Source: an uncultured beta proteobacterium (lineage in GTDB: Bacteria > Pseudomonadota > Gammaproteobacteria > Burkholderiales > Burkholderiaceae_D). From it: a stretch of 64,000 nucleotides of DNA. The notes below the pieces were generated by a model that was given only the letters and a program-made list of their open reading frames with translations, had not been told where the DNA came from and made no database searches. The number at the start of each line of letters is the position of its first letter. Within the stretch, counting starts at the first letter, position 1. The position numbers were made by a program, and so were the translations under genes. Location: NCBI GenBank assembly GCA_963722005.1, contig CAVRJS010000002.1:37190-101189 (forward strand). The letters run 5' to 3'. This document shows, one piece after another, positions 1-25,019 of the stretch.

Positions 1-1
1 C

Positions 2-445
2 GCAAGTCAATTGTCCGACGGCGCCTCTGCCTGCGTCTTGATGGAAAAGCGAATAGCTGAGCAACGCGGGCTGCAGCCGCTCGGCATCTACCGCGGCATG
101 GCCGTGGTCGGATGCGCACCAGAGGAAATGGGAATCGGCCCCATCTACGCGATTCCCAAGTTACTCCAGCGGCACGGCTTGAAGGTCTCGGACATCGGTC
201 TATGGGAATTGAACGAGGCGTTCGCTTGCCAGGCCCTGTACTGCCGCGATCACCTTGATATCGATCCTGACACGTTCAACGTCAACGGCGGCGGCATTTC
301 AATCGGACATCCGTACGGCATGACGGGCGCCCGGCTGGTAGGTCATGCCTTACTCGAAGGTAAACGGCGTGGCGTCAAATACGTTGTCGTATCGATGTGC
401 GTCGGTGGCGGCATGGGCGCTGCAGGCCTGTTCGAAGTCGCATGA
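2..445 (+). CDS. acetyl-CoA C-acyltransferase (thiolase), C-terminal fragment; gene begins upstream of the window
   Basis: Frame of ORF 11..445 is open to the window edge. Translation ends ...NGGGISIGHPYGMTGARLVGHALLEGKRRGVKYVVVSMCVGGGMGAAGLFEVA, the typical thiolase C-terminal catalytic region. Confidence 0.85.
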   Translation, partial: ASQLSDGASACVLMEKRIAEQRGLQPLGIYRGMAVVGCAPEEMGIGPIYAIPKLLQRHGLKVSDIGLWELNEAFACQALYCRDHLDIDPDTFNVNGGGISIGHPYGMTGARLVGHALLEGKRRGVKYVVVSMCVGGGMGAAGLFEVA

Positions 446-676
446 GTCACCGGTAACCGCAAGCATGAATTCGATAGCCGCAACGGCGATTGAGCGACAT
501 GGATCGGCGGTTTTCGAATTGAACCGATCGCAGTTCACGCTGTACCCAATAATAAGCATTTCAGCTTGCATAACGCTCTATCGCCATTAATCATTAAATT
601 ACTTCCGGCTACGCCGGAAGTTTTTAATACCAAGGGCGCAAAGAAGCTAGCAGCTCGCGATCTGCTTAAGGGCGGG

Positions 677-1927
677 CTACAACCTCTCTGGCGGCGTCAG
701 ATAAGCCGCCGTTTCCCCAAGCGTTTTTTGACTATTCTTAATTTCCATGCGTGCAATGGACTGCAGATGAACTTCATCTGGGCCGTCGGCGTAACGAAGT
801 GCCCGGCCCCAGGTCCAGTGGTCGGCGAGCGGCGTGTCAGGACTGATTCCCATGGCGCCAAAGGTTTGCATGGCGCGATCACAGACGGTAGTGTGAACGG
901 TAGGCACTAGCGCCTTGATCATGGATATCTCCTTGCGGGCCTCCTTGGCCCCCACGTTGTCGATCATCCAGGCAGTTTTCAATACCAGCAAGCGCGCCTG
1001 ATCGATCTCGATACGCGAGCGGGCGATCCACTCGGAAACGATGCCTTGTTGATGCAAGTATTTGCCAAATGTCCGACGTTCCTGGGCACGCGCGATCATC
1101 AACTCCAGCGCCAGCTCTGCCGCACCGATAGAGCGCATGCAATGATGAATGCGGCCCGGCCCTAACCGTGCCTGCGCCAGCGCAAAGCCACTCCCCTCCT
1201 CGCCCAGTAAATTACTCGCCGGCACCCGCACATTGCGGAATACGATCTCGCAATGCCCCTCGGGGGAGTGATGATTCATGATATTGATGTTGCGGACAAT
1301 CTCTACGCCAACCGTATCCCGCGGCACCAGAATCATGCTCTGCTGGTGATGGGATTCGGCAGTAGGGTCAGTCTTGCCCATCAGGATAAAGATCTTGCAA
1401 TTCGGATGGGCGGCATTGGTAATAAACCATTTTCGGCCATTGATGACATAGTCATCGCCATCACGCTGGATCAGGGTGGTGATATTGGTCGCATCGGAGG
1501 ATGCCACGTCCGGTTCTGTCATGGCGAACGCTGAACGGATCTCGCCGTTCAGCAACGGCAGCAGCCACTGCTCGCGTTGGGCCGGGGTGGCAAACATATG
1601 CAACAATTCCATATTGCCGGTATCGGGCGCATTGCAGTTAAACACTTCCGATGCCCAACTGATGCGCCCCATGATTTCTGCCAGCGGCGCGTATTCCAGA
1701 TTACTCAAGCCGGTGCCAGGCTCACCTTCTTTCAGATGGGGCAGAAACAGGTTCCACAGCCCTTCCGATTTCGCCAGTGCCTTCAGGTCCTCCATAAACG
1801 ATACCGGAAAGATACCGGCATGTACTTCCTCGTTGTACTGGCGTACGCGCGGCAGGATATGCTCATCCATAAAATTTCGCACGCGGGTGCGCAAGTCTTC
1901 TACCTTCGCTGTATATCCAAATTCCAT
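677..1927 (-). CDS. acyl-CoA dehydrogenase family protein (ACAD10/11 C-terminal-domain-like, LvaC-like)
   Basis: 416-aa ORF. ACAD fold signatures are present (…FAMTEPDVASSDATNI…, …GKWFITNA…, C-terminal …HLQSIARMEI…). Co-operonic with a phosphotransferase and an SDR. Confidence 0.85.
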   Translation of the reverse strand: MEFGYTAKVEDLRTRVRNFMDEHILPRVRQYNEEVHAGIFPVSFMEDLKALAKSEGLWNLFLPHLKEGEPGTGLSNLEYAPLAEIMGRISWASEVFNCNAPDTGNMELLHMFATPAQREQWLLPLLNGEIRSAFAMTEPDVASSDATNITTLIQRDGDDYVINGRKWFITNAAHPNCKIFILMGKTDPTAESHHQQSMILVPRDTVGVEIVRNINIMNHHSPEGHCEIVFRNVRVPASNLLGEEGSGFALAQARLGPGRIHHCMRSIGAAELALELMIARAQERRTFGKYLHQQGIVSEWIARSRIEIDQARLLVLKTAWMIDNVGAKEARKEISMIKALVPTVHTTVCDRAMQTFGAMGISPDTPLADHWTWGRALRYADGPDEVHLQSIARMEIKNSQKTLGETAAYLTPPERL

Positions 1928-1967
1928 GATGCGCCTCTCTATCGGGTTCGTTGTTCGCTATCGTTGA

Positions 1968-2732
1968 TTACAGGGTGGCGCCGCCGTCGACGACAATACA
2001 TTCGCCCGTGGTGTAACTGGCGGCGTCCGAGACCAGATACAGCACCGTACCGGCCATTTCCCGGGGTTCGGCATGACGTCCCATCGGCACCTGCGCGATA
2101 GCTGTGTTGTAGATTTTTTCATTCTCGAACAAGGCACCCGCGAATTTGGTCTTGGTGTAACCGGGCAGTAGTGCATTGACACGAATCCCCAATGGCGCGC
2201 ATTCCTTGGCAAAGGCCTTGGTCATGTTGACCACTGCGGCCTTGGTGATCGAGTAGATCCCTTGCATATCACCGGGCTGCAGGGCGTTGATCGACGCGGT
2301 ATTTACAATCGCGCCGCCACCGTTTTCTTTCATTATTTTTCCCGCTTCGACCGACATGAAAAAATAACCGCGAATATTCACGTCGACAGTCTTGTTGTAG
2401 ACAGCCAGATCTGTGTCCAGAATATGGCCGAAATAGGGATTGGCGGCTGCATTGTTAACCAGGATATCCAGCCTGCCGTGGACGTTCTTGATGTGGGAAA
2501 ACACCGTAGCGATATCTTCCATCGAACCGACATGACAGGCAAAGGCTTCGGCACTGCCGCCTTGCGCAATGATGGCATCCGCAACCAGCTGGCAAGCTTC
2601 CAGCTTGCGACTGGAAACAATCACATGGGCGCCTTGCTCGGCCAGCAACCTGGCGATTGCTTCGCCAATACCACGGCTGGCACCAGTCACGAGTGCGATC
2701 TTGCCGGTCAAGTCAAATAATTGTGTGCTCAT
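1968..2732 (-). CDS. SDR family oxidoreductase (short-chain dehydrogenase/reductase)
   Basis: 254 aa. N-terminal TGASRGIG Rossmann motif, NNAA motif and YxxxK (YSITKAA) catalytic motif. Confidence 0.9.
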   Translation of the reverse strand: MSTQLFDLTGKIALVTGASRGIGEAIARLLAEQGAHVIVSSRKLEACQLVADAIIAQGGSAEAFACHVGSMEDIATVFSHIKNVHGRLDILVNNAAANPYFGHILDTDLAVYNKTVDVNIRGYFFMSVEAGKIMKENGGGAIVNTASINALQPGDMQGIYSITKAAVVNMTKAFAKECAPLGIRVNALLPGYTKTKFAGALFENEKIYNTAIAQVPMGRHAEPREMAGTVLYLVSDAASYTTGECIVVDGGATL

Positions 2733-2782
2733 TTTCGTCCTACAGGAATTTGCTTTGTTTATCGAATCAATGCCCGCCTGGC

Positions 2783-3814
2783 CTAACGCTCTTTCTCCAG
2801 CAAGGCAATGGCCAACTCCGCAAGAGGCCTGGCCATCTTGCCCACTTGCACAGCTTTGTCGCTGGAAGCGTTGCCATCCAAGGCGCGTTTCAACACTCCC
2901 TGAACAATTGCCGCCAGCCGGAAAAAGCTAAACGCCAGGTAGAACTGCCAATTGTCGATGGCGCCGATACCGCGTAGCGCACAATATTGGGCGACAAGAT
3001 CGGCCTCAGTCGGGATTCCCAATTGCTCGCGATTTTTGCCGGCCAGCCCGGAAATGTGACCGCTGGAGGGCAAGCGCAAACACATGCAAAAATAAGCCAG
3101 ATCGGCGAGTGGGTGCCCCAGGGTCGAGAGCTCCCAGTCCAGCACTGCCATCACCCGCGCTTCGGCGGGATGAAATATCAGATTGTCGATACGGTAGTCG
3201 CCATGAACGATGCTGAGCTGGCCGTCATCTGCCGGCATATTGGCTGGCAACCAAGTGATCAGCGTTTCCATGGCCTCGATGGTTTCGGTTTCGGCAGCAC
3301 GGTATTGCTTGGTCCACATGCCAACTTGACGTTCGAAATAATTACCCGAGCGACCGTAATCGCCCAACCCGACCGCATTCACATCGACATCATGTAGCGT
3401 CGCCAACACCCGTATCAGCTCGCTATAAAGCGGTGCTCGCTGTTCGCGCGGCAATTCCGGCAGAGACGGATCCCAGAAAATTCTCCCCTGCTGAAAATGC
3501 ATGACATAGAACATGCTGCCGATCACCTCCCGGTCTTCGCACAAAAGATAGGGGTGGGGTACCGGCACCGCGGTTTTTCTCAGGGCATCCAATACACGGT
3601 ATTCCCGGTCCACCGCATGGGCGCCTTTCAGCAAAGCCCCGGGTGGTTGACGACGCAATACATATTCACCACTCCGCGCCTTGAGGAGGAAAGTGGGATT
3701 GGACTGTCCACCTGCAAATTTCTCAGCGGTCAGCGGCCCCTGAAAACCGTTGATCCGGGTCTCCAGGTAGGCCGCGAGTTTGAGCGTATCAAGGCTATTC
3801 ACATCAGTTATCAT
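2783..3814 (-). CDS. phosphotransferase (APH/CHK kinase-like) family protein, LvaA/ACAD10-11 kinase-domain-like
   Basis: 343 aa. Aminoglycoside-phosphotransferase-like fold motifs (…IVHGDYRIDNLIF… Brenner/HGD motif, DWELS). Sits directly upstream of the SDR and ACAD genes on the same strand. Confidence 0.8.
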   Translation of the reverse strand: MITDVNSLDTLKLAAYLETRINGFQGPLTAEKFAGGQSNPTFLLKARSGEYVLRRQPPGALLKGAHAVDREYRVLDALRKTAVPVPHPYLLCEDREVIGSMFYVMHFQQGRIFWDPSLPELPREQRAPLYSELIRVLATLHDVDVNAVGLGDYGRSGNYFERQVGMWTKQYRAAETETIEAMETLITWLPANMPADDGQLSIVHGDYRIDNLIFHPAEARVMAVLDWELSTLGHPLADLAYFCMCLRLPSSGHISGLAGKNREQLGIPTEADLVAQYCALRGIGAIDNWQFYLAFSFFRLAAIVQGVLKRALDGNASSDKAVQVGKMARPLAELAIALLEKER

Positions 3815-3838
3815 CTACCAAATCTCCGTCTTTCTTCG

Positions 3839-4510
3839 TTATCCGTGGCTGATCGAGTCCAGCCGTCCCGGCTGATCAAGGTGCGGAATATTGTTAAAAC
3901 TCGCGAGCTTGACCGACCGATTATTAAAGTAATAATGCGAAAAGCTGCTATTTTTAACCTGCAAATTGAGTTCGATGGCAGTGTTCGGAGGAGCCGCCAA
4001 TACCTGCCTGGCCATCATTCCGATAGGACCGCCGGAGCTGACGACCAGGACGCGCTGCGCTCCACATTGCTGGATAAAATGACGGGCATCTTTGACCCGC
4101 TGAGCAAAGGTTTCCCAGCTTTCCGGCAAGGTTCCCGCCAGTTGGCCAGCCGCCCAGAACTGCAGTACCTGCTTCAGCCCTTTCGAGAAGTCACGCTTAT
4201 CGCCCGATGCCAGCAGCTTTAACTCAGCATGATCTTCTCCCAGAGCGTTGAACAGCGCTGAAAAATCGTATTCGTTGAGCTCCGGATGCTCGGTGAAAAT
4301 CGGGCTACAGCCCATGCCGCGACAAATTCCCGTGGCAGTTTGGCGGTGACGCAACTGAGTGCCAATGATGACCCGATCAAATTGAATGTCGCGTTCGGCA
4401 AAATACTGCCCTAGCCAAAGGGATTGCTGCTCACCCAGCGTCGTAAGCCGATCATAGTCATCCGTTCCGAAGGACGCTTGACCGTGCCGAACCAGATAGA
4501 ACTCCCCCAT
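3839..4510 (-). CDS. histidine phosphatase (phosphoglycerate mutase) family protein
   Basis: 223 aa. N-terminal LVRHGQASF (RHG catalytic motif). First gene of the minus-strand operon. Confidence 0.8.
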   Translation of the reverse strand: MGEFYLVRHGQASFGTDDYDRLTTLGEQQSLWLGQYFAERDIQFDRVIIGTQLRHRQTATGICRGMGCSPIFTEHPELNEYDFSALFNALGEDHAELKLLASGDKRDFSKGLKQVLQFWAAGQLAGTLPESWETFAQRVKDARHFIQQCGAQRVLVVSSGGPIGMMARQVLAAPPNTAIELNLQVKNSSFSHYYFNNRSVKLASFNNIPHLDQPGRLDSISHG

Positions 4511-4521
4511 GCCGCACCTCC

Positions 4522-4560
4522 ATCGATATTAGAAACAAATAATAGCGAACGAATCGATAT
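4522..4560. promoter_or_regulatory. divergent promoter region carrying two copies of the palindromic octamer ATCGATAT (4522-4529 and 4553-4560); candidate LysR-type regulator binding sites
   Basis: Lies in the 109-bp AT-rich intergenic region between the minus-strand operon (end 4510) and the divergent LysR gene (4620). The octamer copies are spaced about 31 bp centre to centre. Confidence 0.3.
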
Positions 4561-4619
4561 CTTTGAAATTTATTGTAGTGATACATCGCTATAATTATTG
4601 GTTATGGTGATCAACTGAA

Positions 4620-5528
4620 GTGGGACTGTCCATGCGATTAAACCGAGTCGACCTCAATCTGTTTGTGGTTTTCGAGGCCATTTATGCCAAGCGCAACCTC
4701 ACCCGGGCGGCAGAAGTACTGTGTATTTCCCAGCCTGCGGTGAGTAATGCCCTGTTACGAATGCGCAAGACCTTTAACGACCAGCTGTTTGTCAGTACGC
4801 CCCAAGGCATGGTGCCCACACCAGTGGCAGAGAACATTGTCGGCCGCGTTGGCGAAGCCCTGCAGTTACTTAATGCCAGTGTTCAAGAGGCCGACCTGTT
4901 TATGCCGATCAGCGCCCAAAGGGTCTTCCGGGTCAGCATGAACGACTTGACGGAAACCCTGTTGCTGCCTGCATTGGGAGACGTGCTGCAGCGGCAGGCT
5001 CCGGGTATTCGCATCGAAAGCTACTTTAGCAACCGCCACGATGTCCCCCGTGAACTGGCAACGGGGGCGCTGGATCTGGCGATTGACGCCCCGCTCATCA
5101 ATGATCCGCAAATACGTCATGGCCATTTGATGAGCGAACGATATGTCTGTATGCTGCGCAAGGGTCACCCAATGGCTGATCAAACACTTAGTCTGGAGAA
5201 CTATCTGGCCTTGGGGCACATCCATATTTCGAGTCGTCGCGAGGGGCTGGGGTATGTGGATACAGCGCTCAACAAGCTTGGCAAACCGCGCAAAATTCAG
5301 ATGCGGGTGCAACACTATATGGTGGCGCCACTAGTCGCCATGCGCACTGACCTGGCGCTGACTGCTCCCTTAGGATTGGTGCAGGGCTATGACGCAATAC
5401 AATTGGAGCTGCCTTTTAAGCTGCCGGCGATGGAATGGCATCTGTACTGGCACCGTAGTGCCGACCGGGATCCCGCGAACGCTTGGCTACGGGACAAGCT
5501 GCTGCAGTTTATGCGCGCAGCAAAATAG
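4620..5528 (+). CDS. LysR family transcriptional regulator
   Basis: 302 aa. N-terminal HTH …LNLFVVFEAIYAKRNLTRAAEVLCISQPAVSNALLRMR… followed by a LysR substrate-binding domain. Divergent from the catabolic operon. Confidence 0.9.
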   Translation: MGLSMRLNRVDLNLFVVFEAIYAKRNLTRAAEVLCISQPAVSNALLRMRKTFNDQLFVSTPQGMVPTPVAENIVGRVGEALQLLNASVQEADLFMPISAQRVFRVSMNDLTETLLLPALGDVLQRQAPGIRIESYFSNRHDVPRELATGALDLAIDAPLINDPQIRHGHLMSERYVCMLRKGHPMADQTLSLENYLALGHIHISSRREGLGYVDTALNKLGKPRKIQMRVQHYMVAPLVAMRTDLALTAPLGLVQGYDAIQLELPFKLPAMEWHLYWHRSADRDPANAWLRDKLLQFMRAAK

Positions 5529-5768
5529 GCATGGTTCTGGTGCATATTTATCCAAGGCAATTTACCTACAATCTTCAAGTCCTCTCAATCAGTAATTGTC
5601 CCACTACCCGCTGCGATGCTACGTAGCCGTCGAATGTGATGCTGTCCGGTGCGCGGCCCGGTGTTGTGAGCACTTATGTAGAAGCTTCTGTTGAGTAAAG
5701 AATGGCAGTAGTCCTGAATGTGGCGGATATGATGGTTGAATGGTCAAGACATCCCAAAATAGACGGGC

Positions 5769-6344
5769 ATGCTGTTGACTAATAAACTAGTTTGGAAAAT
5801 ATGGGTGTTTAGTCAGATGACACATTCCGGCGCCGCATTTCTCCAGTCCCTGATCGAGGAAACCGACCGCCTCGCAAACGCGCTGGAATCAGCCAGGGTC
5901 ACCTGCGAAGCTTCTGGACGGCCGGACATCATCGAGTGGATCGCCCGGGAGCTGGCTGGCTATGATGACGGCGACACGATATTCTCCTGTCGCAAACTGC
6001 CGACCGTAGAAAAAGCGCTAATCACCAACGGCGTCGAAACGGAATGCAATCATGTCATCGGCAAATCCCATCAGTGGATCAAGGCCGCCGTCAGGGACAT
6101 ATCCACGCTTCCGGAATTGCAGGACGCCCTGCAGCAGGAGCGGGATTTTCTCATTTACGACGTGAATCCGGATCAATACTTCTATCGTCGCATGCTGTCT
6201 GCGACCAAGCCGGGCTATGCCGCGCAGCGCATATGGATGGAAGCCCCGTTGGGCGGATTATCGGATATTGTTGCGGGCATCAGTGATCGCCTGGCGCAAT
6301 TGCTGGCGGACCTGCACCGAAAACCATCCTGGGATCAATCATGA
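5769..6344 (+). CDS. hypothetical protein
   Basis: 191-aa ORF with coding-like codon usage (GC3-rich). No recognisable family. Start may be the internal Met at 5817. Confidence 0.45.
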   Translation: MLLTNKLVWKIWVFSQMTHSGAAFLQSLIEETDRLANALESARVTCEASGRPDIIEWIARELAGYDDGDTIFSCRKLPTVEKALITNGVETECNHVIGKSHQWIKAAVRDISTLPELQDALQQERDFLIYDVNPDQYFYRRMLSATKPGYAAQRIWMEAPLGGLSDIVAGISDRLAQLLADLHRKPSWDQS

Positions 6345-6404: not shown

Positions 6405-7034
6405 TTAAAACTGCGCGCCGCCCGGCCGTGTAATGCTCGAAATGATCTGGAACGCCCGACTCACCTGCCGTACCATTTCCGCGCCGTGCCGTGAATGGAC
6501 TTTGCGGATCTCCCCCTCATCGTCATACTCGACCCGCACTGTGCCGACGCCGGCCAGTGCAACGAACACGGGCTTGCCGGCGGCATTGTAGCGGAATGTC
6601 ATGACGCGGCGTTCACCTGTGGCGCTGTCAACCAGCGCCAGGCGCCGGATTTTCTGCATGCTGCCGTATTCGAGCGACACGACCCTGCCGGCGCCGTTCT
6701 CGGCGCGTTTGAGCGTGCCGTTCTGGTTGTAGTGGTACGTCACCCTGCGGCTGCCGTTCAGCGCCAGGATCAGCTTGCCGCTGCGCGGGTGATAAATGTA
6801 TTCGATGTATCCGCCGTCGCCATTCGGCTTGCGCACGATCCGCCCCTGGTCATCGCAGACAGCGTTGCGGCAGCAAGCGCTGGTGGCGCCCGACGACGTT
6901 TGTTCCTGCGTCGCGGCCACGACATGTGGCGCATCGAGACTGGCGGTGTTGGCGTTGTCCTTGTCGGTCTTTCCGCACGCTAGGGCAATCGACGGCACGG
7001 TCAGCGCGATGGCGAACAGTTTTTTAAGTTTCAT
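6405..7034 (-). CDS. lipoprotein with YD/RHS-like repeats
   Basis: 209 aa. Signal peptide plus lipobox (…SIALAC GK…). Repeated Y-x-Y/H-x-x-x-G motifs (VTYHYNQNGTL, MTFRYNAAGKP, VRVEYDDEGEI) resembling YD repeats. Confidence 0.6.
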   Translation of the reverse strand: MKLKKLFAIALTVPSIALACGKTDKDNANTASLDAPHVVAATQEQTSSGATSACCRNAVCDDQGRIVRKPNGDGGYIEYIYHPRSGKLILALNGSRRVTYHYNQNGTLKRAENGAGRVVSLEYGSMQKIRRLALVDSATGERRVMTFRYNAAGKPVFVALAGVGTVRVEYDDEGEIRKVHSRHGAEMVRQVSRAFQIISSITRPGGAQF

Positions 7035-7370: not shown

Positions 7371-9035
7371 ATGAACCCGATACCGAAGGAACAATTCACC
7401 GACATGCTGGCGGCGGTCGCGCGCGCGCGCGGCTTGTCCGGCGTGCTCGACCTGTTCGCGCAAGCGCTGGACGCGGCGCCCGGTATTGACGGTTTCTGGA
7501 TAAATCTTCTGGACGCTTCCGGCGAAAACCTGCGATGCATGAAGATCCGGTTGATGCCGGGGTTCCGCGAAATCGAGAAAAGTTATATCGGCCAATCCGC
7601 CAACCTGTTCGATTCGCAGTTCATCTCCCGGGTTTTTAAATCACGTTCGATCTCGCGCCTGACGGCCGACAATGCCAGCGATACCGAACGAAATGTCCTG
7701 CGCTACTGGAAGGCAAACTCATTGGTCGGCATGCCGATCTGTGATCCGGACGCCCCGGGAGCAGCACCGATCGGCGTGCTGGTGCTGATGATGGAAAAAG
7801 CCAGCGACCGGATCGACACGGCGCTGCAAACGGTGTCATGCCTCATCGACGTGTATTACGCCAACATGGCCAACTGGCTGAAGCTGAGTCAGCTGGAGGA
7901 ATTGCATCAGGAAGCGCTCTCTACAGTCACCGACAATCGCCGTTTGCTCGATTTTATCCAGGAGCTGGGCGGCCTGACTTCAGTCGATAAAATTTATCAG
8001 CTGTTTAGCGCCGAACTGTTTCGTCAGCTGAAGTTTGACATCGCCGCTTTCGTAACCCTGCAGGACGAACAACTGGTGCTGGATAATATTGTCGGCGCCA
8101 ACCCTGCGATGCAGAAAATCGGCGATGCATGGCGTGCATTTCAGTCCGGGGCTGTCTACGAAATGAAGGAGACTGCCAGCGGCGCGGTGTATGTATTCAT
8201 GCATAACACCACCTTCCTCGTACACGACTTGCAGCAGGTCATGCATTTGCCCATGTCCGAGTTCGACCGCCGCAGCCTCGGCTTCCTGCCCCAGCCGCCG
8301 CGCACGCTTTTCCTGTCGGCGATCCGCTATCGCGGGCAGGCAATCGGCGCCTTCGGCCTGTACAGCCTGAATGAACCGCGGCCATTGTCGGAAAACGATC
8401 TGCACCTGCTGGAACAGCTGGCCTCGTTCCTCGGTACCGCCCTGACCAACAGCCGCCTGTATGCGACCAGCCAGGCGCAAAATGCCGAGATCGGGCGCCT
8501 GAACCTGCAATTGCAGGAGAAGGTCAGCCGGCTGGCCGAGCTGGCATCGACCGACCAGTTGACCGGCCTGTTCAATTTCCGCAGCTTCGAGCAGGAGCTC
8601 GAGCGCCGCCTGCAGGAAGCCGCACGCGCCTCGGACAAGAAGGACCTGTCGCTGGTGGCGCTGGATATCGACCACTTCAAGGATTTCAACGACCGTTACG
8701 GCCATGCTGCCGGTAACGACGTGCTGACTGCCGTTGCCAGCGAAATCAATCGCTGCATCCGCCAGACCGATATGGCTTGCCGTTACGGCGGCGAGGAATT
8801 CGTCGTGATCCTGCCGAACTGCGACCTGGAAGGCGCCCGGCTCCTGGCGGAACGCATCCGTTGGTGCGTCGAGGAGATCAGCGTGCCGACGCCCGATGGC
8901 GAGCGCCGCATCACCATTTCCGCCGGCTGCACGGTGCGCCAGCCGGAAGACACGCAACTGACCCTGTTCGGCCGCGCCGATGCCGCCTTGTACCAGGCCA
9001 AGGCACAGGGACGCAACCGCGTCTGCTGCAACTAA
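7371..9035 (+). CDS. GAF domain-containing diguanylate cyclase (GGDEF)
   Basis: 554 aa. Two GAF-like N-terminal regions, then a coiled coil, then a GGDEF domain with an intact GGEEF active site (…RYGGEEFVVILP…) and an RxxD I-site-like context. Confidence 0.85.
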   Translation: MNPIPKEQFTDMLAAVARARGLSGVLDLFAQALDAAPGIDGFWINLLDASGENLRCMKIRLMPGFREIEKSYIGQSANLFDSQFISRVFKSRSISRLTADNASDTERNVLRYWKANSLVGMPICDPDAPGAAPIGVLVLMMEKASDRIDTALQTVSCLIDVYYANMANWLKLSQLEELHQEALSTVTDNRRLLDFIQELGGLTSVDKIYQLFSAELFRQLKFDIAAFVTLQDEQLVLDNIVGANPAMQKIGDAWRAFQSGAVYEMKETASGAVYVFMHNTTFLVHDLQQVMHLPMSEFDRRSLGFLPQPPRTLFLSAIRYRGQAIGAFGLYSLNEPRPLSENDLHLLEQLASFLGTALTNSRLYATSQAQNAEIGRLNLQLQEKVSRLAELASTDQLTGLFNFRSFEQELERRLQEAARASDKKDLSLVALDIDHFKDFNDRYGHAAGNDVLTAVASEINRCIRQTDMACRYGGEEFVVILPNCDLEGARLLAERIRWCVEEISVPTPDGERRITISAGCTVRQPEDTQLTLFGRADAALYQAKAQGRNRVCCN

Positions 9036-9097
9036 GGCCCGCACCCATCCGGCATGTGTGAATGTGACCTGCAAGCAGGCAGCCGAGCAGAAAAGCC

Positions 9098-9667
9098 ATG
9101 ACCCGCCTTGAAATCGCCGCGAATGTGGCCGCCACGGTTTCCATCCTGCTTGCCGGGAGAAACAGCGTGCATACCTGGTGGACCGGCATCCTGGGATGCG
9201 CGCTGTTTGCGGCATTGTTTTACCAGTCGCACCTGTATGCCGACGTCACGCTGCAGGCCTTTTTCATCTTCACCAGCGCGATCGGCTGGCTGCACTGGCT
9301 GCGCGGCAACCAGGGCCAGGCCTTGCCGGTTTCCCATGCCGGCTGGCGCAAGCTGGCCTGGACCGTGCCGGCGGGGTTGGCTGCGACGGCAGCCTATGGC
9401 GGCATGCTGCATTACTTCACCGATGCCTACGCGCCTTTCATCGATTCCGCCATCCTCGTATTTTCCGTAATCGCGCAATTGCTGCTCATGCAAAGGCGCA
9501 TCGAGACCTGGCCATTCTGGCTGCTGGTCAACAGCATTGCCGTGCCGCTGTTCGCCAGCCGCGGCCTCTACCTGACTGCGACGCTGTATGCGGCATACTG
9601 GGTCAATGCCTGCGTTTCTTGGTGGTGGTGGCGCCGGCTCGCCGAACGCGCGCCTGCGGTCACATGA
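9098..9667 (+). CDS. pnuC: nicotinamide riboside transporter PnuC
   Basis: 189 aa polytopic membrane protein with PnuC-like N-terminus (MTRLEIAANVAATVSILLAGRNSVHTWWTGILG…). Stop overlaps the start of the next gene (ATGA). Confidence 0.8.
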   Translation: MTRLEIAANVAATVSILLAGRNSVHTWWTGILGCALFAALFYQSHLYADVTLQAFFIFTSAIGWLHWLRGNQGQALPVSHAGWRKLAWTVPAGLAATAAYGGMLHYFTDAYAPFIDSAILVFSVIAQLLLMQRRIETWPFWLLVNSIAVPLFASRGLYLTATLYAAYWVNACVSWWWWRRLAERAPAVT

Positions 9668-17427: not shown

Positions 17428-18728
17428 TTACAGCTGGCCGCTTTCCTTGATATCCAGGTAGCGATTCACCAGCGACATCCCCAGCCTTTCCGGCGTAATG
17501 TCGATCAGTTGCCCGGCGCGAATGCCGAAGTGGCGTATGGCGTCGTCGCGCTGTTCCAGGTAATGCGCCGTGGCGCAATAGCGCAACGCTTCGTCGAACT
17601 GGCGCACCGGCGTCTCGATCACCGCATCGAGGCTGCGCTCGCGCAGGCTGGCGCACATCACCAGGTGCCTTGACGACAGCAGCTCGCACGCCGCGCGCAT
17701 GGCATGGTCGTCCTCGTCGCGCAGGTTGGTGATGATGACCACGAAGGCGCGCTTGCCGAGGCGGTTGAGCAGGCCGCTTGCGGCTTGCAGGTAATCTGGC
17801 GCGACCTCGCCCGCCTGCAAGTCGTATACGCCCGCCAGCAAGCGGTCCAGGCCGGTGCGGCCCTTGGCCGGACTCAGCCAGCGCGTCTGCGCGCCGAAAC
17901 TCAGCAGCCCCACCGCATCGCCCTGCTTCTGCGCCACAAACCCCAGCGTCAGCACGGCATTGAGGGCATGGTCGAAATGCGAAGAAACGCCATCCCTGGC
18001 CAGCATGCGCCGGCCGGTGTCAAGCAGGAACACCACCTGCTGGTCGCGCTCTTCGCGGTATTCGCGGGTGATCGGCCTTTGCAGGCGCGACGTCGCCTTC
18101 CAGTCGATCGCGCGCATGCTGTCGCCCTGGCGGTATTCGCGTAGCTGGCGGAAATCCGTGCCTTCGCCGCGCCGGCGCTTGCGTATCGCCCCCGCCGCCG
18201 GCGAACGCCGGTCAGTCGCGGTGAGCGCATGGCCGAGCAGCTTGGAATAGTCCGGAAACACCTTGACCTCGGTGATCTCGCCCAAACGCAGGTGGCGCCG
18301 CCACAGGCCCAGCGGCGAACGCACGCGCACGTGCGCGACGCCGAAGACGGCGTCGCCGCGCCGGTCCGGGCACAGGCGGTAGCCGACCGCGGCGAAACGT
18401 CCCGGCGCAATGCGCGTGGCATACGGCAAACCCTCCATGCCCCAGGCGCCAGGGTAATCGTCCAGCAGCTCGACTGCCAGCGCCCGCCCGCCTTCATTGT
18501 GCAGCGTGACCGTGGCGCCATTCCAGACATCCACGGGCCAGACGCCGGAGACTTGTCGCTCCACGCGCAAGGCCGGCGCTTTCCACGCCAGCAGGGCATC
18601 GGCAATGCCAATCAGCAGCAACGCCAGGCCGGCGCCCTGCCAGAACGGCGCCACCCCCGGCCACCAGCCGGCGGCAAACCCCAGCAGCGCCCACGCGGAC
18701 GCCGCCAGCAACAATCGGCGCGACGGGG

Positions 18729-18732
<4 letters not shown>
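17428..18732 (-). CDS. DUF58 domain protein (vWA-like), MoxR partner
   Basis: 434 aa. N-terminal TM segments. Typical DUF58 genes follow MoxR ATPases. Start overlaps the MoxR stop (ATGA). Confidence 0.8.
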
Positions 18733-19767
<1,035 letters not shown>

Positions 19768-19778
<11 letters not shown>

Positions 19779-21027
19779 AGGTTTTCCTCAGTAGTCGAAG
19801 TGTATGGATCTGGCGGGTAAACTGTATCGGTGTCTTGCCGGGCGGGTCCCGCAAGGCGGCGATCACGCTGGCTTTGGGCAGCTTGCTGTCCTCTGCCAGG
19901 CTATCGATCTGCTGGTCCGGATGCTGGCGCAGCAAGTGCGGCGCGCGCTGACGCCAGGCCTTGCTGGCGGCGGCGCGGGCAGCGTTGAGCAGGATTTCGC
20001 GCCCGCCCGGCACACGCCACAGCCAGCGCCCGCTGGCGTCGATATGCTCGACCAGCGAGCGGCGCTCCAGCAGCGGTTCTGGCAGCGGCGTGCCGAAGCG
20101 GCGCATCGACATCCACAGGAACAGCGCCAGTACGCAGACCGCGCCGATCAGACCTTCCTTGAAATTGGTCCATAGCGCCTGGTGCCACTTGGGCATCTCC
20201 AGCCCCTGCACGATGATGAAGTGCTTGCCGGATGTGCCGGCAATGCCAAGCAGCAGTTCCGCATGGTCGCTGCCGACCAGTTGGTTGTTTTCGAAATATT
20301 GCTGCGCCAACAAAACGACGCGCCCGCGCCCTTCCTGGTAGATGCGCACCACTTCACCGTTGGCATCGGCATGTGTCGGCACGTGGCCTTCGCGAAACGT
20401 CCACAGCGCCGAATAACCGTGCTCGATCTGCAGCGGATAGACGCCGCCTGGCAGCGTGAATTCGACGACATCGCGTTTGATTGCCTGCCCCGGTTTGCGC
20501 GCAGAGTCCGCCGGATTTTGACGGCGGTTCAGCGAAACGCCATAGCGGCCGCCGAAGGGGTCACGCGTAGCCGATCTTTCACCGTCCTCGTCTTCGGTTG
20601 CCTGCTCATCGTCGTCTTCGTACTCGCCATCGTCGCCGGCATCTTCACCGTCGCTGTCGTCGTTCGTGCTGGCGCTGCCGCTGCGCCATTTCGGCTGCGC
20701 GATCAATGTATTGCCCTGCCTGACCCAGGCCAGAAGGCGTTGCTCCTGTTCCTTGCCGAGCAGGCCGCCGTTCTGGGCGATCAGGATCGTGCCCTGGGGC
20801 GGCAAGTCGAGCAGCGCTTCATGCAGCATGGGATGCGTGTCGATCTTGTAGCCGCGCGCAGTCAACAGCCGCTCGGCCGCCAGCAGGGGATTGTCGCTCC
20901 ATGCCTTGGGAACGTGGCGCTTTGCTTCGACGCGCTGCTCGAAGTTGGCAAACCACCACGCCGCGGTTGCCGCGCATACCAGCAGCGACAGGATGCCCAG
21001 CAGCCATTGTCTTTGTGTATGACTCAT
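19768..21027 (-). CDS. DUF4350-like membrane protein with acidic low-complexity insert
   Basis: 419 aa. N-terminal TM. D/E-rich tract ([28 protein letters not shown]). Its position between the DUF4129-like and MoxR genes matches the conserved cluster. Confidence 0.65.
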
Positions 21028-22631
21028 GCGGCCTCCACGGATGTGCGTGCGCCGCCGTCAAAGCTGACGCGCCAGTCCTGGCACAACGCCTCGACCTTTT
21101 CGTCCTGCGGCCAGCGGTTGCCGTAGGCGCCGTCCAGCCACACTGATGTCACCGCGGTGGCGACGCGCAGCCTGCCGGCGTCGAGCCGTTGCATGCGCGC
21201 CGCGCGGTTGGCCAGGCGCAGGCAATCCGCTTCGGTGGCACCCCGGGTCAGAAGCAGCCCGTTTTCATTGATCAGGCGCGACACCGTGGCGCGATAGAGC
21301 AGCGCCAGGGCAGCGCGATGCTCGTCCTTGCGCCACAATGCGAGCACGTTGCTGCTGACATCGTCGGGCAGGCTTTCCGGCCTGATGTCGAGGCCGCCGA
21401 TTTCAGTGGCCAGTTCCGGGTTGCGTTGGCCAAACAGCGTCGAGAAATTGCCGCGGAAGCGGTACAGCAGCCATACCACGCCGACGATGGCGAGGGTGAT
21501 CAGCAGCAGCCGCACCACGGCGGCATAGGCTTCCATGTCTGGCGGCGGCGAATTTTTTTTCTTTTCTTCCTTTTCTTTTTCTTCCTTCTTTTTCTCGTTC
21601 GGCTTCGGCTTGCGCACCCAGGTTTCTTCGCAGCGGTAATTGCGCAGATCGTCGTCGCGGTAGAGCTGGTCGACTTCTTCGCGCAGGCGCTTCTGCGTCT
21701 CGTTGCGCGCAGGCGCGCGTTCATTGCCCAGCGTGAGCGACCACTCTGGCTCTTTGCACGCCTCCACGGCAGCACGCGCCGTCTGCGGCTGCATTGCCAC
21801 CAGCAGCACGCAGGCGAGCAGCGCCAGCGCCGCTTTCGCGCCCGGCACGAGCGCGCCGGCGCGCTCCTGCGGCGAGGCCGGCTTGAGCTGGCGCAGCGCG
21901 ATTTCGATATCCCAGGCTTCCAACGTCGCACGCCGGTTCAGGTAGAGCGTAAAGCAGCCGGCGGCATACACCGGGCCGATGATGCCGCCGCACAGCGCAT
22001 AGCAGATATAGGTGACCACGGTCAGCATCGTTTCTTGTTTCTCGCCGAAACTGAACAGGAATTTGAATGGATTGATAGCACCTTCATCCGCAAGAAAGAT
22101 GCCGATAAAAGCTACCGTACCGATCTGTATGACCGCCTCCAGGTGGGCGCAAACGATGCCGTACCAGTATGCCGACCCCGCCGTGCCGGCGGCGCCGATC
22201 ACCCGGCGGCGCTGGGCGGCTTCCCTGCCGCGCGCGCCTTCCAGTTGCCAGATGGGCTGAAACAGGCCGCGGCCCGGCATGAACGGGCGCCACCAAGTCA
22301 GCAGGCGGAACCAGCCGCCGCCGAGCTGGCGCGGCCAGGCGCGCAGCGCTCCCTGCCAGGTTACCTCTTCGCCGAATACCCGGCGCGCGAGAATGTACAG
22401 CGGCGCCCTTTCCAGCAGCGGCCGCAGCCACCACGGCAGCAGCAGCCACCAGGTGGCGCCGTCAGGAAACAGCCACGCCAGGGCCGCCGTCAGCAACATC
22501 AGCGGCAGCCACAGCGCCAGCCAGGCCTTGTAGACGGTGGCGGCATTGGCGCGCAACAGCGCCAGGCCCAGTTCGAGCGCCTGCGCATTCGGTCGCGGCC
22601 GCAAGTCGATCTGCAGTTTGTCCAGCCGCAT
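21024..22631 (-). CDS. DUF4129-like membrane protein with K/E-rich tract
   Basis: About 536 aa starting MRLDKLQIDLRPRPN…. Start overlaps the upstream gene's stop (TGATG). The ORF-track 729-aa call (to 23213) is an artefact: its first 194 codons are an alternate frame across the DUF95 gene. Confidence 0.6.
   Translation of the reverse strand: MRLDKLQIDLRPRPNAQALELGLALLRANAATVYKAWLALWLPLMLLTAALAWLFPDGATWWLLLPWWLRPLLERAPLYILARRVFGEEVTWQGALRAWPRQLGGGWFRLLTWWRPFMPGRGLFQPIWQLEGARGREAAQRRRVIGAAGTAGSAYWYGIVCAHLEAVIQIGTVAFIGIFLADEGAINPFKFLFSFGEKQETMLTVVTYICYALCGGIIGPVYAAGCFTLYLNRRATLEAWDIEIALRQLKPASPQERAGALVPGAKAALALLACVLLVAMQPQTARAAVEACKEPEWSLTLGNERAPARNETQKRLREEVDQLYRDDDLRNYRCEETWVRKPKPNEKKKEEKEKEEKKKNSPPPDMEAYAAVVRLLLITLAIVGVVWLLYRFRGNFSTLFGQRNPELATEIGGLDIRPESLPDDVSSNVLALWRKDEHRAALALLYRATVSRLINENGLLLTRGATEADCLRLANRAARMQRLDAGRLRVATAVTSVWLDGAYGNRWPQDEKVEALCQDWRVSFDGGARTSVEAA
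21553..21596. repeat. 44-nt pure polypyrimidine (T/C) tract on the top strand, polypurine on the coding strand, encoding KKKEEKEKEEKKK
   Basis: Top-strand sequence ttttttttcttttcttccttttctttttcttccttctttttctc lies inside the DUF4129-like CDS. Confidence 0.9.
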
Positions 22632-23581
22632 CAGCCGTCCCTCCTTCCGGCCAGCGCAAAGAAGGCAATCAGCGACGCCCAGCAAATGCCGCCGACGATG
22701 TACTTCACCATCGGCGCGATATCGGGGTCGGCAGACCAGAATGCCTCGAAAAAGGCCGCCAGCACGGTCAGAATGGCAGCGCCGACGAGTACCGGGAACA
22801 TGCGCCTGCCGTCCTCCACCAGCGCCTGGCGACGGGTCAGGCGCCCCGGCGAAAGCAGCGACCAGCCCAGCCGCATGCCGGCCACGCCGGACAGCAGCAG
22901 GCCGAAGACTTCGAAGCTGGCGTGCGTGATCACGAAGGTCCAGAAAGTATCGCGCGTGACCGGATCGCGGCTCAGCCAGCTGGCAACCACGCCGAAATGC
23001 ATGCCGTTGAAGGTGATGCTGATCAGCGCCGGAATGCCGGCAAACAGTCCGCCGGCAAAGGTGCGGAAATCGATCGATACGTTGTTCCAGATGTAAAAGC
23101 CGAACATCAGCACGTCGCTTTCCTCGCTGCCGCGGCCGAGATCGATCTTGCCGGGCTGGTACATGGAATGGTAGCGCTGCAGGTCGCCGGGCGACATGAA
23201 GGCATACGCCCACTCCGGCTCATACCAGACCAGCGCGCCGATGCCCAGGCCGACGCCGAAGAACGCCAATACCGTCAGCAACAGCAGGCGCCATTCGCGC
23301 CGCACCTGGCGCGGCATTTCCACCAGCAGCCAGTGCCGCAAGGTCAGCGGACGCTCGGCAGCAGCGCCATACAGGCGCCTGTGGCAATCGCTCACCATGT
23401 TTTGCAGGTAAGCAGTGAGCGCCGGGGAATAGCCGCGCTGCCCCGCCAGCGCCAGGCACTGGCACAGGCGCCGGTAGAGCGCCGGCAATTCCGTGGCGCC
23501 GTCGCGCGTCGCGCCCTTCAGGATCGCCTGGATCCTGTCCCACAATGGCGCGTACTCGATCTCGAACTGGTTCTGCTTCAT
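22631..23581 (-). CDS. DUF95 / stage II sporulation protein M-like membrane protein
   Basis: 316 aa polytopic membrane protein (MKQNQFEIEYAPLWDRI…). Its position between the RDD and DUF4129-like genes matches the conserved cluster. Overlaps the RDD gene (ATGA). Confidence 0.7.
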   Translation of the reverse strand: MKQNQFEIEYAPLWDRIQAILKGATRDGATELPALYRRLCQCLALAGQRGYSPALTAYLQNMVSDCHRRLYGAAAERPLTLRHWLLVEMPRQVRREWRLLLLTVLAFFGVGLGIGALVWYEPEWAYAFMSPGDLQRYHSMYQPGKIDLGRGSEESDVLMFGFYIWNNVSIDFRTFAGGLFAGIPALISITFNGMHFGVVASWLSRDPVTRDTFWTFVITHASFEVFGLLLSGVAGMRLGWSLLSPGRLTRRQALVEDGRRMFPVLVGAAILTVLAAFFEAFWSADPDIAPMVKYIVGGICWASLIAFFALAGRRDG

Positions 23582-24270
23582 TTCATCAACCCTGCAAGAA
23601 TGCCGCGCAACTGTTCCACGGATGCCGCGCCGGTACGCCCGGTCAATGGCTCAGCCAGCGTGCCCAGCTCTTCCAGGCGCTCGGTCGAGAGCCTGCGCTC
23701 GCGCTCGAACAGGTCGGCGAGGATACGTTGCTGCTCCGGCGTGAGAGGATATGGCGGCGCCAGCGGCGCCACGTCGGCGACGGCAGCGGCGACATTGTCG
23801 CGCTTTTCGCGCTTGTCGCGATAGATCACCTGGGTGCCGGCGACGATATCGCCGAGCCGCCGGCTGCGGCCATCGCACAGCATGGAAACGAGGCCGGCAA
23901 AGTACATGGCCGGGAGAAAATCCGCCACCAGCAACAGGTTGCGCAGGGCCGATTCACGCCAGCCGACCGGCAGGCCGTCCGCGCGCACCACCTCGATGCC
24001 GAGCATGCGTTTGCCGAGCGTGCGGCCGCCGCAATAGACTTCGCACAGGATCGGATAGCCCCAGTAGCTGACGAACAGCATCACCAGATAGATACCCTGG
24101 CCGAGATCGGTGCCCAGCAAGGCCAGCGCCAGTATCCAGATCACCACCAGCCAGATGACGAAATCGATCATCCAGGCTGCCGCGCGCGTGACCGGTCCCA
24201 CCGGCGTCATCAGCAGGCGCACGCCCTCCGGCGTGGTCTGCGAGACGCGCTCGTCGATGACCGCACTCAT
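23578..24270 (-). CDS. RDD family membrane protein
   Basis: About 230 aa from MSAVIDERV…. RDD-like TM core (…AAWMIDFVIWLVVIW…GRTLGKRMLGIEV…). Start overlaps the PLD gene's stop (TGATG). The ORF-track start at 24309 would overlap by 40 nt. Confidence 0.75.
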   Translation of the reverse strand: MSAVIDERVSQTTPEGVRLLMTPVGPVTRAAAWMIDFVIWLVVIWILALALLGTDLGQGIYLVMLFVSYWGYPILCEVYCGGRTLGKRMLGIEVVRADGLPVGWRESALRNLLLVADFLPAMYFAGLVSMLCDGRSRRLGDIVAGTQVIYRDKREKRDNVAAAVADVAPLAPPYPLTPEQQRILADLFERERRLSTERLEELGTLAEPLTGRTGAASVEQLRGILAGLMK

Positions 24271-24992
24271 CACGCGCTCCTTGCGGACGGTTCGTAAAAT
24301 GCGCTCCACAGCAGCGCAAACTGCGCGGAAAAAGCGCTCACCAGCGCTGCATCGTTGGTCATGATCACGTTCTCTTCATTGTGTTCGCTGGCGCTGCGCG
24401 TCCAGTTGTAACTGCCGTTGATCAGCCACTGGCTGTCGAACAGGGCAAATTTGTGGTGCATGTGCGCCGGACTGCGATCCACCGCCACGGGCACGCCGGC
24501 ATGCCGCAGCCTGTCGATGTCGCTGCCGGCGTCGAATTCCTTGTCATTGTCGGTCAGCAGACGCACCTTGACGCCACGCCGGTGCGCCGCCAGCACATCC
24601 TCGCTGATGCGGTCGTCGGACAGCGTGAAGACGCAGATGTCGATGCTGTCGCGTGCGGCGCGCAGGCGCTGCTGGATCGCGCGCAGGCAAGACAGACCCG
24701 GACTGAAAAAAGCCTCATTGCGCAGGGCCGCCACCGGCGCGCGTACGGCGTCGAGCGCGCGCGCCACGCCGTCCAGCCATTTCAGCAGCGATTGCTGCTC
24801 CGCGCCGTCCAGGCGCGCGCGCACCAGGTCGAAGGCGCGGTTGCGCACCTGACGCAAGCCTTCCTCGGGCGTCGCGGCGGCGCGCAGCAGCGTCATCAGC
24901 TCGCGCCTTTCGTCATCGCTCAGGCGCGCATCGGCAATGCTGGCTTCCAGGTGCGCCAGCACGTCGTCGATGGAAACCGCTGCCGTGCTCAT
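24270..24992 (-). CDS. phospholipase D-like (HKD) domain protein
   Basis: 240 aa with a single HKD motif (…HMHHKFALFDSQWLINGSYNWTRSA…), as in Nuc/PLD-superfamily enzymes that act as dimers. Confidence 0.8.
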   Translation of the reverse strand: MSTAAVSIDDVLAHLEASIADARLSDDERRELMTLLRAAATPEEGLRQVRNRAFDLVRARLDGAEQQSLLKWLDGVARALDAVRAPVAALRNEAFFSPGLSCLRAIQQRLRAARDSIDICVFTLSDDRISEDVLAAHRRGVKVRLLTDNDKEFDAGSDIDRLRHAGVPVAVDRSPAHMHHKFALFDSQWLINGSYNWTRSASEHNEENVIMTNDAALVSAFSAQFALLWSAFYEPSARSA

Positions 24993-25019
24993 GCGCGCGG
25001 GCGGCAGGCGCGCCGGGCG

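Follow-up and report, generated by a model that had tools for sequence, protein, structure and literature searches.

Organization of the four-gene cluster

We analyzed a 64,000-nt stretch of DNA from an uncultured betaproteobacterium (contig CAVRJS010000002.1; hereafter, the window), focusing on a cluster of four co-directional minus-strand genes and the LysR-type regulatory gene that diverges from it. An earlier reading of this DNA (the original prediction) had taken the cluster to be a catabolic module for 4-hydroxyacids. The window was subjected to an open reading frame (ORF) scan and was searched with Pfam, using curated gathering cut-offs, and with NCBIfam models. The four genes were recovered exactly where the original prediction had placed them, and Pfam assigned all of the families that it had named, with scores well over the gathering cut-offs. 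In the direction of transcription, the genes encode a histidine phosphatase (3839–4510; 223 aa; His_Phos_1, 69 bits), a kinase of the aminoglycoside phosphotransferase (APH) fold (2783–3814; 343 aa; APH, 177 bits), a short-chain dehydrogenase (SDR; 1968–2732; 254 aa; adh_short_C2, 216 bits), and an acyl-CoA dehydrogenase (ACAD; 677–1927; 416 aa; Acyl-CoA_dh_N/M/1). The regulatory gene lies on the plus strand (4620–5528) and encodes a 302-aa protein with HTH_1 and LysR_substrate domains.

The spacers separating the four minus-strand genes were 40, 50, and 24 nt long, and a scan for terminators inside the four-gene run returned none that was convincing; thus, the layout is consistent with a single operon. 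The flanks were also as claimed, with the LysR gene divergent and a thiolase gene convergent, although only a fragment of the latter lies in the window, whose edge cuts it. Composition was even over positions 1–6000 (GC 0.535–0.565), and so recent insertion of the region was not indicated.

Acyl-CoA dehydrogenase and kinase

Compared with all PDB sequences, the ACAD was best matched by mouse ACAD11 (8v3u; E = 3.7e-122, 411 bits), to which it was 50% identical across 391 aligned positions. Further top matches were the dehydrogenase domain of human ACAD11 (2wbi) and a Mycobacterium abscessus protein (4hr3; 386 bits), whereas FadE3, SCAD, MCAD, and other conventional ACADs scored at most 142 bits. 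This difference ruled out an ordinary FadE-type ACAD. The protein has the three-domain ACAD architecture, with Acyl-CoA_dh_N, _M, and _1 all over the Pfam cut-offs, and D381, in the motif YADGPDEVH, sits where ordinary ACADs have their catalytic Glu. PDB entry 8v3v has the same sequence as 8v3u except for an Asn at the position aligned with D381, and the change of the catalytic Asp to Asn is the ACAD-dead mutant of Rashan et al. (PMC12440821). We concluded that the window ACAD has an Asp base. The suggestion that the canonical Glu context might be missing, as in LvaC and ACAD11, was thereby borne out, with Asp in place of the Glu.

Two hallmark motifs, NAPDTGN (99–105) and RLGPG (254–258), are also present in the ACAD. 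The APDTGN and RLGPG motifs were tabulated for ACAD10, ACAD11, LvaC, and a Burkholderia enzyme by Paquay et al. (PMC11342911), and the segments FNCNAPDTGNMEL and AQARLGPG of the window protein match their supplementary table in the regions of ACAD11 P463 and R627. From these alignments, the ACAD is predicted to be of the ACAD10/ACAD11/LvaC type and to eliminate phosphate from 4-phosphoacyl-CoA.

The closest solved structure to the kinase was 3dxp from Cupriavidus pinatubonensis (E = 4.9e-116, 53% identity), a structural-genomics entry without an assigned function. The kinase also matched the kinase domain of mouse ACAD11 (E = 4.6e-89, 45% identity) and the ACAD10-like kinase 9o56 of Caldalkalibacillus thermarum (E = 3.6e-54). 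Its catalytic motifs, HGDYRIDN (204–211) and DWE (226–228), are intact; an HxD with a downstream Asn and a metal-binding DWE motif have been described for the 9o56 kinase (PMC13596139). The NCBIfam model for APH(3') resistance proteins scored just 30.6 bits against its cut-off of 205, which ruled out an antibiotic-resistance APH. Hence neither the kinase nor the ACAD belongs to an unrelated subfamily (antibiotic APH, FadE), an outcome that the original prediction had named as refuting it.

Published identities place the kinase more closely. For LvaA of Pseudomonas putida, Paquay et al. (PMC11342911) gave 29% identity to the ACAD10/11 kinase domains; for other bacterial kinases, identity reached 51% to ACAD10 and 38% to ACAD11. 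With 45% identity to ACAD11, the window kinase groups with the ACAD10/11-like bacterial kinases; its separation from LvaA draws on those published figures. We predict from this homology that it is an ACAD10/11-type small-molecule kinase of the APH fold, acting as a 4-hydroxyacyl-CoA 4-kinase.

Histidine phosphatase

A profile was searched against 1.84 billion representatives of 50% identity clusters with the threshold set at E ≤ 1e-30, and at this threshold the phosphatase subfamily contained at least 892 clusters. An alignment was made of 147 of the top 150 representatives (≥190 aa) and the window phosphatase, for a total of 148 sequences that were mutually <50% identical. The median identity of the aligned representatives to the window phosphatase was 38%.

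The window phosphatase has the branch-1 fold (PF00300), and it contains the RHG nucleophile motif (R8-H9-G10) as well as R54 and E80. However, its set of four canonical catalytic residues is short by one: the second catalytic His, found in the SHG motif, is replaced, and in the alignment S159 (VVSSGG) falls on the His of VSHQG in CobC. This Ser was kept in all 148 aligned sequences. The other positions were almost as constant, with R8 and H9 each kept in 147/148 (the remaining sequence has a gap), R54 in 147/148 (one Lys), and E80 in 147/148 (one Asp). Because R8, H9, R54, and E80 are near-invariant and S159 is invariant, an active enzyme with an altered phosphate pocket is expected, rather than a decayed pseudoenzyme. 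No fusion of the phosphatase to a kinase or an ACAD was seen among the top 150 representatives, all of which were 157–263 aa long. Other branch-1 histidine phosphatases, namely PhoE (1h2e), CobC, SixA, and the phosphoserine phosphatase PspA, were at most 26% identical to the window protein; in contrast to these relatives, its subfamily has the invariant Ser for the second His and is without a characterized member.

Some relatives of the phosphatase occurred away from the kinase. In about 15 species of Ralstonia (locus L010, 7001–8484, and about 14 further loci), the phosphatase and the orthologous SDR (78–81% identical to that of the window) make up a unit of two genes. Neither a kinase nor an ACAD was found within 7 kb of these Ralstonia pairs, whose neighbors were an M20 peptidase, CopD, and a PLD-like protein. 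A lone phosphatase paralogue, 44% identical, was located on the chromid of Cupriavidus metallidurans CH34 (locus L090, 7001–7675). Its neighborhood encodes a TetR regulator, a TctC-type receptor, a LysE exporter, and an NDP-forming acyl-CoA synthetase; no kinase gene lies closer than 7 kb, and the kinase homologue of that replicon is far away.

Short-chain dehydrogenase

The SDR shows the classical motifs TGASRGIG, NNAA, S147, and YSITK, and it passed the NCBIfam equivalog PRK07035 with 472 bits (cut-off 373). Its best solved relative was DHRS4 (E = 1e-53, 185 bits), the peroxisomal carbonyl reductase of human, pig, and C. elegans (PDB 3o4r, 2zat, 5ojg), which is likewise a classical carbonyl-reducing SDR. 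The lead over the next SDR (163 bits) was modest, and the match is treated here as a resemblance rather than orthology. By analogy with LvaD, the SDR may be a 4-oxoacyl-CoA/4-hydroxyacyl-CoA oxidoreductase; the evidence is weak, and we regard this assignment as evenly balanced.

Conservation of the gene neighborhood

We surveyed synteny with the phosphatase, of the four proteins the one least understood, as the seed and one genome per species, and we mapped the window proteins onto the 80 best loci. All four genes were present in 54 of the 80 loci. The kinase gene was directly downstream of the phosphatase gene in 65 loci, the same SDR occurred in 72 (74–93% identity), and a second, extra SDR was seen in 37, a frequency that hints at the possibility of 4-hydroxy epimerization through a 4-oxo intermediate. 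Linkage of the kinase to an ACAD10/11-type ACAD was kept in 61 loci and also in other phyla. The same LysR protein was found in 59 loci (59–97% identity), encoded either divergently or downstream, and its co-conservation with the operon supports a dedicated regulator. Taxa among the loci included Collimonas, Janthinobacterium, Burkholderia, Paraburkholderia, Caballeronia, Pandoraea, Limnobacter, Zoogloeaceae, and Oceanospirillaceae, and the closest locus was in Collimonas, with proteins 86–97% identical to those of the window, which places the source of the window in a related member of the Oxalobacteraceae.

Several loci added further genes of acyl-CoA metabolism. Georgfuchsia and Azoarcus have a longer co-directional cluster encoding, in order, an ACAD, a DUF5938 protein, an AMP-dependent ligase, a thiolase, the phosphatase, the kinase, an SDR, and an ACAD, so that the four-gene set occupies its distal end. 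Sulfitobacter has a thiolase–phosphatase–kinase row, in which the thiolase (73% identical) is directly upstream of the pair, and a Zoogloeaceae locus has a 79% identical thiolase roughly 2.9 kb upstream.

For a wider survey, annotated plasmids and chromids were searched with tblastn. In Deinococcus radiodurans, a Streptomyces, and a Pseudoalteromonas, the kinase and phosphatase occurred together with an ACAD and one or two SDRs, and the ACADs of these three modules retained APDTGN, RLGPG, and DGPD(E/I)VH. Their SDRs were just 25–37% identical to the window SDR, and this refuted SDR orthology across phyla. The phosphatase and kinase genes overlapped or were 1–2 nt apart in Deinococcus, Pseudoalteromonas, Azoarcus, and Georgfuchsia. 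Overall, the phosphatase adjoined this type of kinase in Beta-, Gamma-, and Alphaproteobacteria, Deinococcus, and Streptomyces, whereas Sphingobium, Acinetobacter soli, and the archaeon Halogeometricum had a kinase–ACAD pair without the phosphatase. This distribution indicates that the kinase and ACAD form the core and that the phosphatase is a frequent accessory, linked to the kinase across at least three phyla. Conservation of the neighborhood with lva-like and ACAD10/11-like clusters was thus found in many genomes. The original prediction had further proposed a convergent trio of kinase, phosphatase, and ACAD. That trio recurs across phyla and has one precedent in a levulinate cluster (see below), but the phosphatase of the window is without one canonical catalytic residue.

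In one group of Burkholderia spp. operons (loci L032, L041, L042, L048, L060, and L066), the ACAD was just 53–54% identical to the window ACAD. These proteins bear the ACAD10/11 motifs as FNCSAPDTGNME and IAQGRLGPG, the variant printed for P. putida LvaC. Thus, two ACAD subtypes can fill the same slot in the operon.

Comparison with known systems

The nearest parallel is offered by mammalian ACAD11 and ACAD10 (8v3u, 8v3v, 2wbi), through which 4-hydroxy fatty acids enter ordinary beta-oxidation. Both halves of these proteins are homologous to window proteins, as the identities to mouse ACAD11 given above illustrate, and ACAD10 likewise joins a kinase, an ACAD, and a phosphatase-fold domain. ACAD10/11 convert 4-hydroxyacyl-CoA to 4-phosphoacyl-CoA and then to 2-enoyl-CoA (PMC12440821; PMC11342911). 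In contrast to ACAD10/11, the window has these activities on separate polypeptides and includes an SDR and a LysR regulator in the unit. The two phosphatases also differ in fold (His_Phos_1 in the window, HAD in ACAD10), and so they are analogous and not homologous.

The logic of phosphorylation followed by elimination was first found in lvaABCDE of P. putida KT2440 (Rand et al. 2017; see PMC12440821, PMC11342911, and PMC6692424). As summarized in those later papers, this system likewise uses a kinase, a phosphate-eliminating ACAD, and an SDR to obtain a beta-oxidation intermediate from 4-oxo- and 4-hydroxyacyl-CoA. The window cluster differs from it by the absence of LvaB, LvaE, LvaFG, and the sigma-54 regulator LvaR, and by the presence of an extra histidine phosphatase. 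Because the spacers measure just 24–50 nt, an additional ORF for LvaB would not fit, and in the interval from the thiolase to the LysR gene the ORF scan and Pfam revealed neither an AMP-binding protein nor a transporter. The proposed signature of the lva pathway therefore holds for the core of kinase, phosphate-eliminating ACAD, and SDR, but not for a strict lva operon, since LvaB, LvaE, and LvaR are missing.

Habe et al. (2019; PMC6692424) studied a cluster of Pseudomonas citronellolis LA18T after RNA-seq of levulinate-grown cells, and theirs was the sole published cluster that we found with a histidine phosphatase beside such a kinase, ACAD, and SDR. It encodes an LvaA homologue, a histidine phosphatase family protein, and LvaC and LvaD homologues, and it has no LvaB. 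Unlike the window, its order is kinase–phosphatase–ACAD–SDR, its kinase is 59% identical to LvaA, and an LvaR homologue regulates it (PMC6692424). These authors speculated on the removal of phosphate from 4-phosphovaleryl-CoA and called for functional analysis. For the Burkholderiales operon, we found no genetic evidence in the RB-TnSeq (barcoded transposon sequencing) or levulinate literature.

Separate proteins of the ACAD10/11 type, as in the window, are also represented by the kinase Q63VL0 and the ACAD Q63VL1 of Burkholderia pseudomallei. Each replaced the matching domain of ACAD10 in vitro (Paquay et al. 2024; PMC11342911). The two accessions are consecutive, and from the usual assignment of accessions the genes may adjoin. 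Q63VL1 has the motifs EIAQGRLGPG and NMET, compared with LAQARLGPG and NMEL in the window, and its variants match the second ACAD subtype of some Burkholderia loci. To judge from these motifs, Q63VL0/Q63VL1 may be a paralogous pair rather than a representative of the phosphatase–kinase–SDR–ACAD operon type.

Proposed pathway

Taken as a whole, the LysR-controlled operon would feed 4-hydroxy (gamma-hydroxy) acyl-CoA thioesters, and probably their 4-oxo counterparts, into the beta-oxidation of this betaproteobacterium. The SDR would interconvert 4-oxoacyl-CoA and 4-hydroxyacyl-CoA, as LvaD does by analogy. The kinase would then use ATP to phosphorylate the 4-hydroxyl, a step suggested by its homology to the ACAD11 kinase domain, for which this activity has been shown. 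Next, the Asp base and FAD of the ACAD would eliminate the phosphate to give 2-enoyl-CoA, as its 50% identity to ACAD11 and its hallmark residues suggest. Ordinary beta-oxidation and the neighboring thiolase could complete the breakdown. Based on homology and shared residues, we consider it likely that the core consists of a 4-hydroxyacyl-CoA kinase and a phosphate-eliminating ACAD, forming an entry module for 4-hydroxy- and 4-oxo-acyl-CoA into beta-oxidation.

The phosphatase would not be required for this chemistry. It might hydrolyze unproductive or excess phosphoacyl-CoA, or the free phosphoacid, and thus avoid the trapping of CoA and the buildup of dead-end products. Its selectivity could be for non-productive phosphoacyl-CoA, whether of the wrong enantiomer, phosphorylated at the wrong position, or present as excess, CoA-trapping 4-phosphoacyl-CoA. 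In such a role it would parallel the ACAD10 HAD domain in function, a speculation suggested by the conserved linkage and by an active site that is conserved and evidently under selection. We offer the idea of a proofreading or relief-valve hydrolase acting on phospho-intermediates tentatively, as a speculation about which we remain doubtful.

Several observations weigh against the pathway as proposed. The one that fits least is the Ralstonia phosphatase–SDR pairs, which are hard to reconcile with a role of the phosphatase confined to the kinase product. Given the missing second catalytic His, the activity of the phosphatase may be weak or different. The SDRs of the distant modules are not orthologous, so that the specific role of the SDR rests on analogy. 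The operon has no gene for an acyl-CoA synthetase or a transporter. The B. pseudomallei ACAD that was tested has slightly different motifs and is maybe a paralogue. According to a 2026 preprint, 1-O-alkylglycerols are phosphorylated in vitro by kinases of the ACAD10 type, prokaryotic members among them (PMC13596139); thus, the kinase may have a different physiological substrate.

Alternative explanations

The alkylglycerol results raise an alternative in which the kinase and phosphatase are a glycerolipid pair, acting on 1-O-alkyl- or 1-acyl-glycerol, and the operon serves lipid salvage or remodeling; such a pair was recently suggested for the kinase and HAD domains of ACAD10. Several prokaryotic ACAD10-type kinase domains phosphorylate chimyl alcohol, and some of them are stimulated by acetyl-CoA, although the preprint itself leaves the relation of the two activities open (PMC13596139). 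The match of the window kinase to C. thermarum 9o56 (E = 3.6e-54) agrees with this alternative, and a phosphatase beside the kinase mirrors the kinase/phosphatase pairing in ACAD10, though the fold differs from that of the ACAD10 HAD domain. The conserved partners, however, all act on acyl-CoA: they are the ACAD, thiolase, and acyl-CoA ligase, with enoyl-CoA hydratase and MaoC/PaaI in relatives. Every residue tied to 4-phosphoacyl-CoA chemistry is kept in the ACAD, and ether lipids are not known from Burkholderiales. For these reasons we regard a glycerolipid pathway as highly improbable. Alternatively, the cluster could be a strict lva operon serving specifically the C5 substrates levulinate and 4-hydroxyvalerate. 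Its core logic is the same as that of lvaA, lvaC, and lvaD, strains of Burkholderia and Cupriavidus have been reported to use levulinate as a co-substrate for polyhydroxyalkanoate (PHA), and a levulinate-induced Pseudomonas cluster likewise has a histidine phosphatase (PMC6692424). Even so, spacers of 24–50 nt cannot hold LvaB; LvaE, the LvaFG transporter, and sigma-54 LvaR are absent, with a LysR regulator instead; and the window kinase shares 45% identity with the kinase domain of ACAD11, compared with the 29% reported for LvaA. Moreover, ACAD10/11 accept substrates of C6 and longer, and so the range of chain lengths may be wider. A strict levulinate operon therefore seems to us rather unlikely, though it is the least improbable of these alternatives.

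A different alternative concerns the phosphatase-fold protein alone, which could be a non-hydrolytic accessory or regulatory subunit of the kinase. It would then correspond to LvaB, a 12-kDa protein that partners LvaA in P. putida, or to the ACAD10 HAD domain in its proposed allosteric role. The replacement of the second catalytic His by Ser in 148/148 sequences would suit such a subunit, as would the tight coupling of the phosphatase and kinase genes (overlapping or 1–2 nt apart) in four genera. The P. citronellolis cluster has a phosphatase and is without LvaB (PMC6692424), and the ACAD10 HAD domain has negligible phosphatase activity, yet it restrains the kinase (PMC11342911). On the other hand, the nucleophile His, both Arg, and the Glu are near-invariant among proteins about 38% identical to the window protein, which argues for catalysis. 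The existence of phosphatases without a nearby kinase in Ralstonia and C. metallidurans and the lack of phosphatase–kinase fusions among the top 150 representatives also speak against a kinase subunit, and we consider this alternative unlikely.

Implications

What such a kinase and ACAD do chemically is already established from P. putida and mammals, and the core of the operon is a confident functional annotation, not a discovery. What is new in substance is the conserved atypical phosphatase partner, which is directly testable. The role of the phosphatase domain of ACAD10 is disputed, with one group describing it as regulatory and another reporting alkylacetylglycerophosphatase activity. ACAD10 acquired this domain independently. 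The four-gene operon is tractable and could reveal what a phosphatase adds where a hydroxyl is phosphorylated just for elimination. If the proposed function is true, the kinase and phosphatase would form a proofreading or relief-valve cycle that animals reinvented with the unrelated HAD domain of ACAD10, and the pairing of kinase and phosphatase would be a general design rule of the 4-hydroxyacid pathway. In that case, the operon would also provide a simple system in which to resolve the dispute over the ACAD10 phosphatase domain.

The annotation would also upgrade thousands of proteins now labeled 'phosphotransferase family protein' or 'histidine phosphatase family protein'. It is relevant to the engineering of levulinate, gamma-valerolactone, and 4-hydroxyacid conversion in PHA-producing Burkholderiales. 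As a corollary lead, the DHRS4-like SDR of the operon, considered together with the peroxisomal location of ACAD11, makes DHRS4 a candidate for the missing 4-oxoacyl-CoA reductase of eukaryotes, working alongside ACAD11.

Regulatory region

The divergent promoter/operator region lies between the phosphatase and LysR genes (4511–4619). A GGAGG ribosome-binding site is located 8 nt ahead of the phosphatase ATG. The LysR ORF opens with GTG at 4620, but an in-frame ATG at 4632 is the likelier start. The best NCBIfam model for the regulator was BsrA, which scored 218 bits, under its cut-off of 480.

The original prediction had pointed to repeated ATCGATAT octamers in this shared promoter. Exact copies are indeed present at 4522–4529 and 4553–4560, but the repeats were neither significant nor conserved: the octamer occurs 3 times in the window versus 1.05 expected, 10 of 100 shuffles reached 3, and in six related loci just the distal copy was partly conserved. 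Its role as a LysR operator is thus unsupported by statistics or conservation. We also dropped a 7-bp inverted repeat (4542–4548/4586–4592) as an operator, since one arm is not conserved in relatives. In an alignment of seven related intergenic regions, the best-conserved element was instead an AT-rich block at 4566–4583 (AAATTTATTGTAGTGATA), with the consensus TATCAnTAyAATAAAyTT on the opposite strand. This conservation makes the block a better operator or promoter candidate than the octamers.

Flanking features

The convergent thiolase is represented by a 144-aa C-terminal fragment (11–445, plus strand; Thiolase_C, 147 bits) that is cut by the start of the window. It is an acetyl-CoA C-acyltransferase of the PRK07108 type, and the partial protein scored 266 bits on PRK07108. 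Between the convergent stops of the thiolase and ACAD genes lies a GC-rich hairpin (601–621) with a 9-bp stem followed by a T-run, and an AT-rich stretch is present on its other flank. By its match to the consensus, the hairpin is a candidate terminator that may be bidirectional.

On the far side of the LysR gene, immediately 3' of it, is a 191-aa ORF (5769–6344, plus strand) with a weak Pfam match to AbiTii (abortive-infection-like; 29.6 bits, cut-off 27.6). A 209-aa ORF follows (6405–7034, minus strand); it has a lipoprotein-like N-terminus (…ALACGK) and short repeats that appear YD/RHS-like by eye, and it had no Pfam match. A GAF–GGDEF diguanylate cyclase is encoded at 7371–9035 on the plus strand, and an antisense ORF at 7980–9215 is probably spurious because of the high GC content. 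Lastly, a minus-strand block at 17428–30395 encodes a DUF58 protein (17428–18732), a 729-aa protein without a Pfam match (21024–23213), and a giant ATPase of 1791 aa with DUF3686, DUF7902, and AAA_5 domains (25020–30395). This block looks like an uncharacterized multi-gene system.

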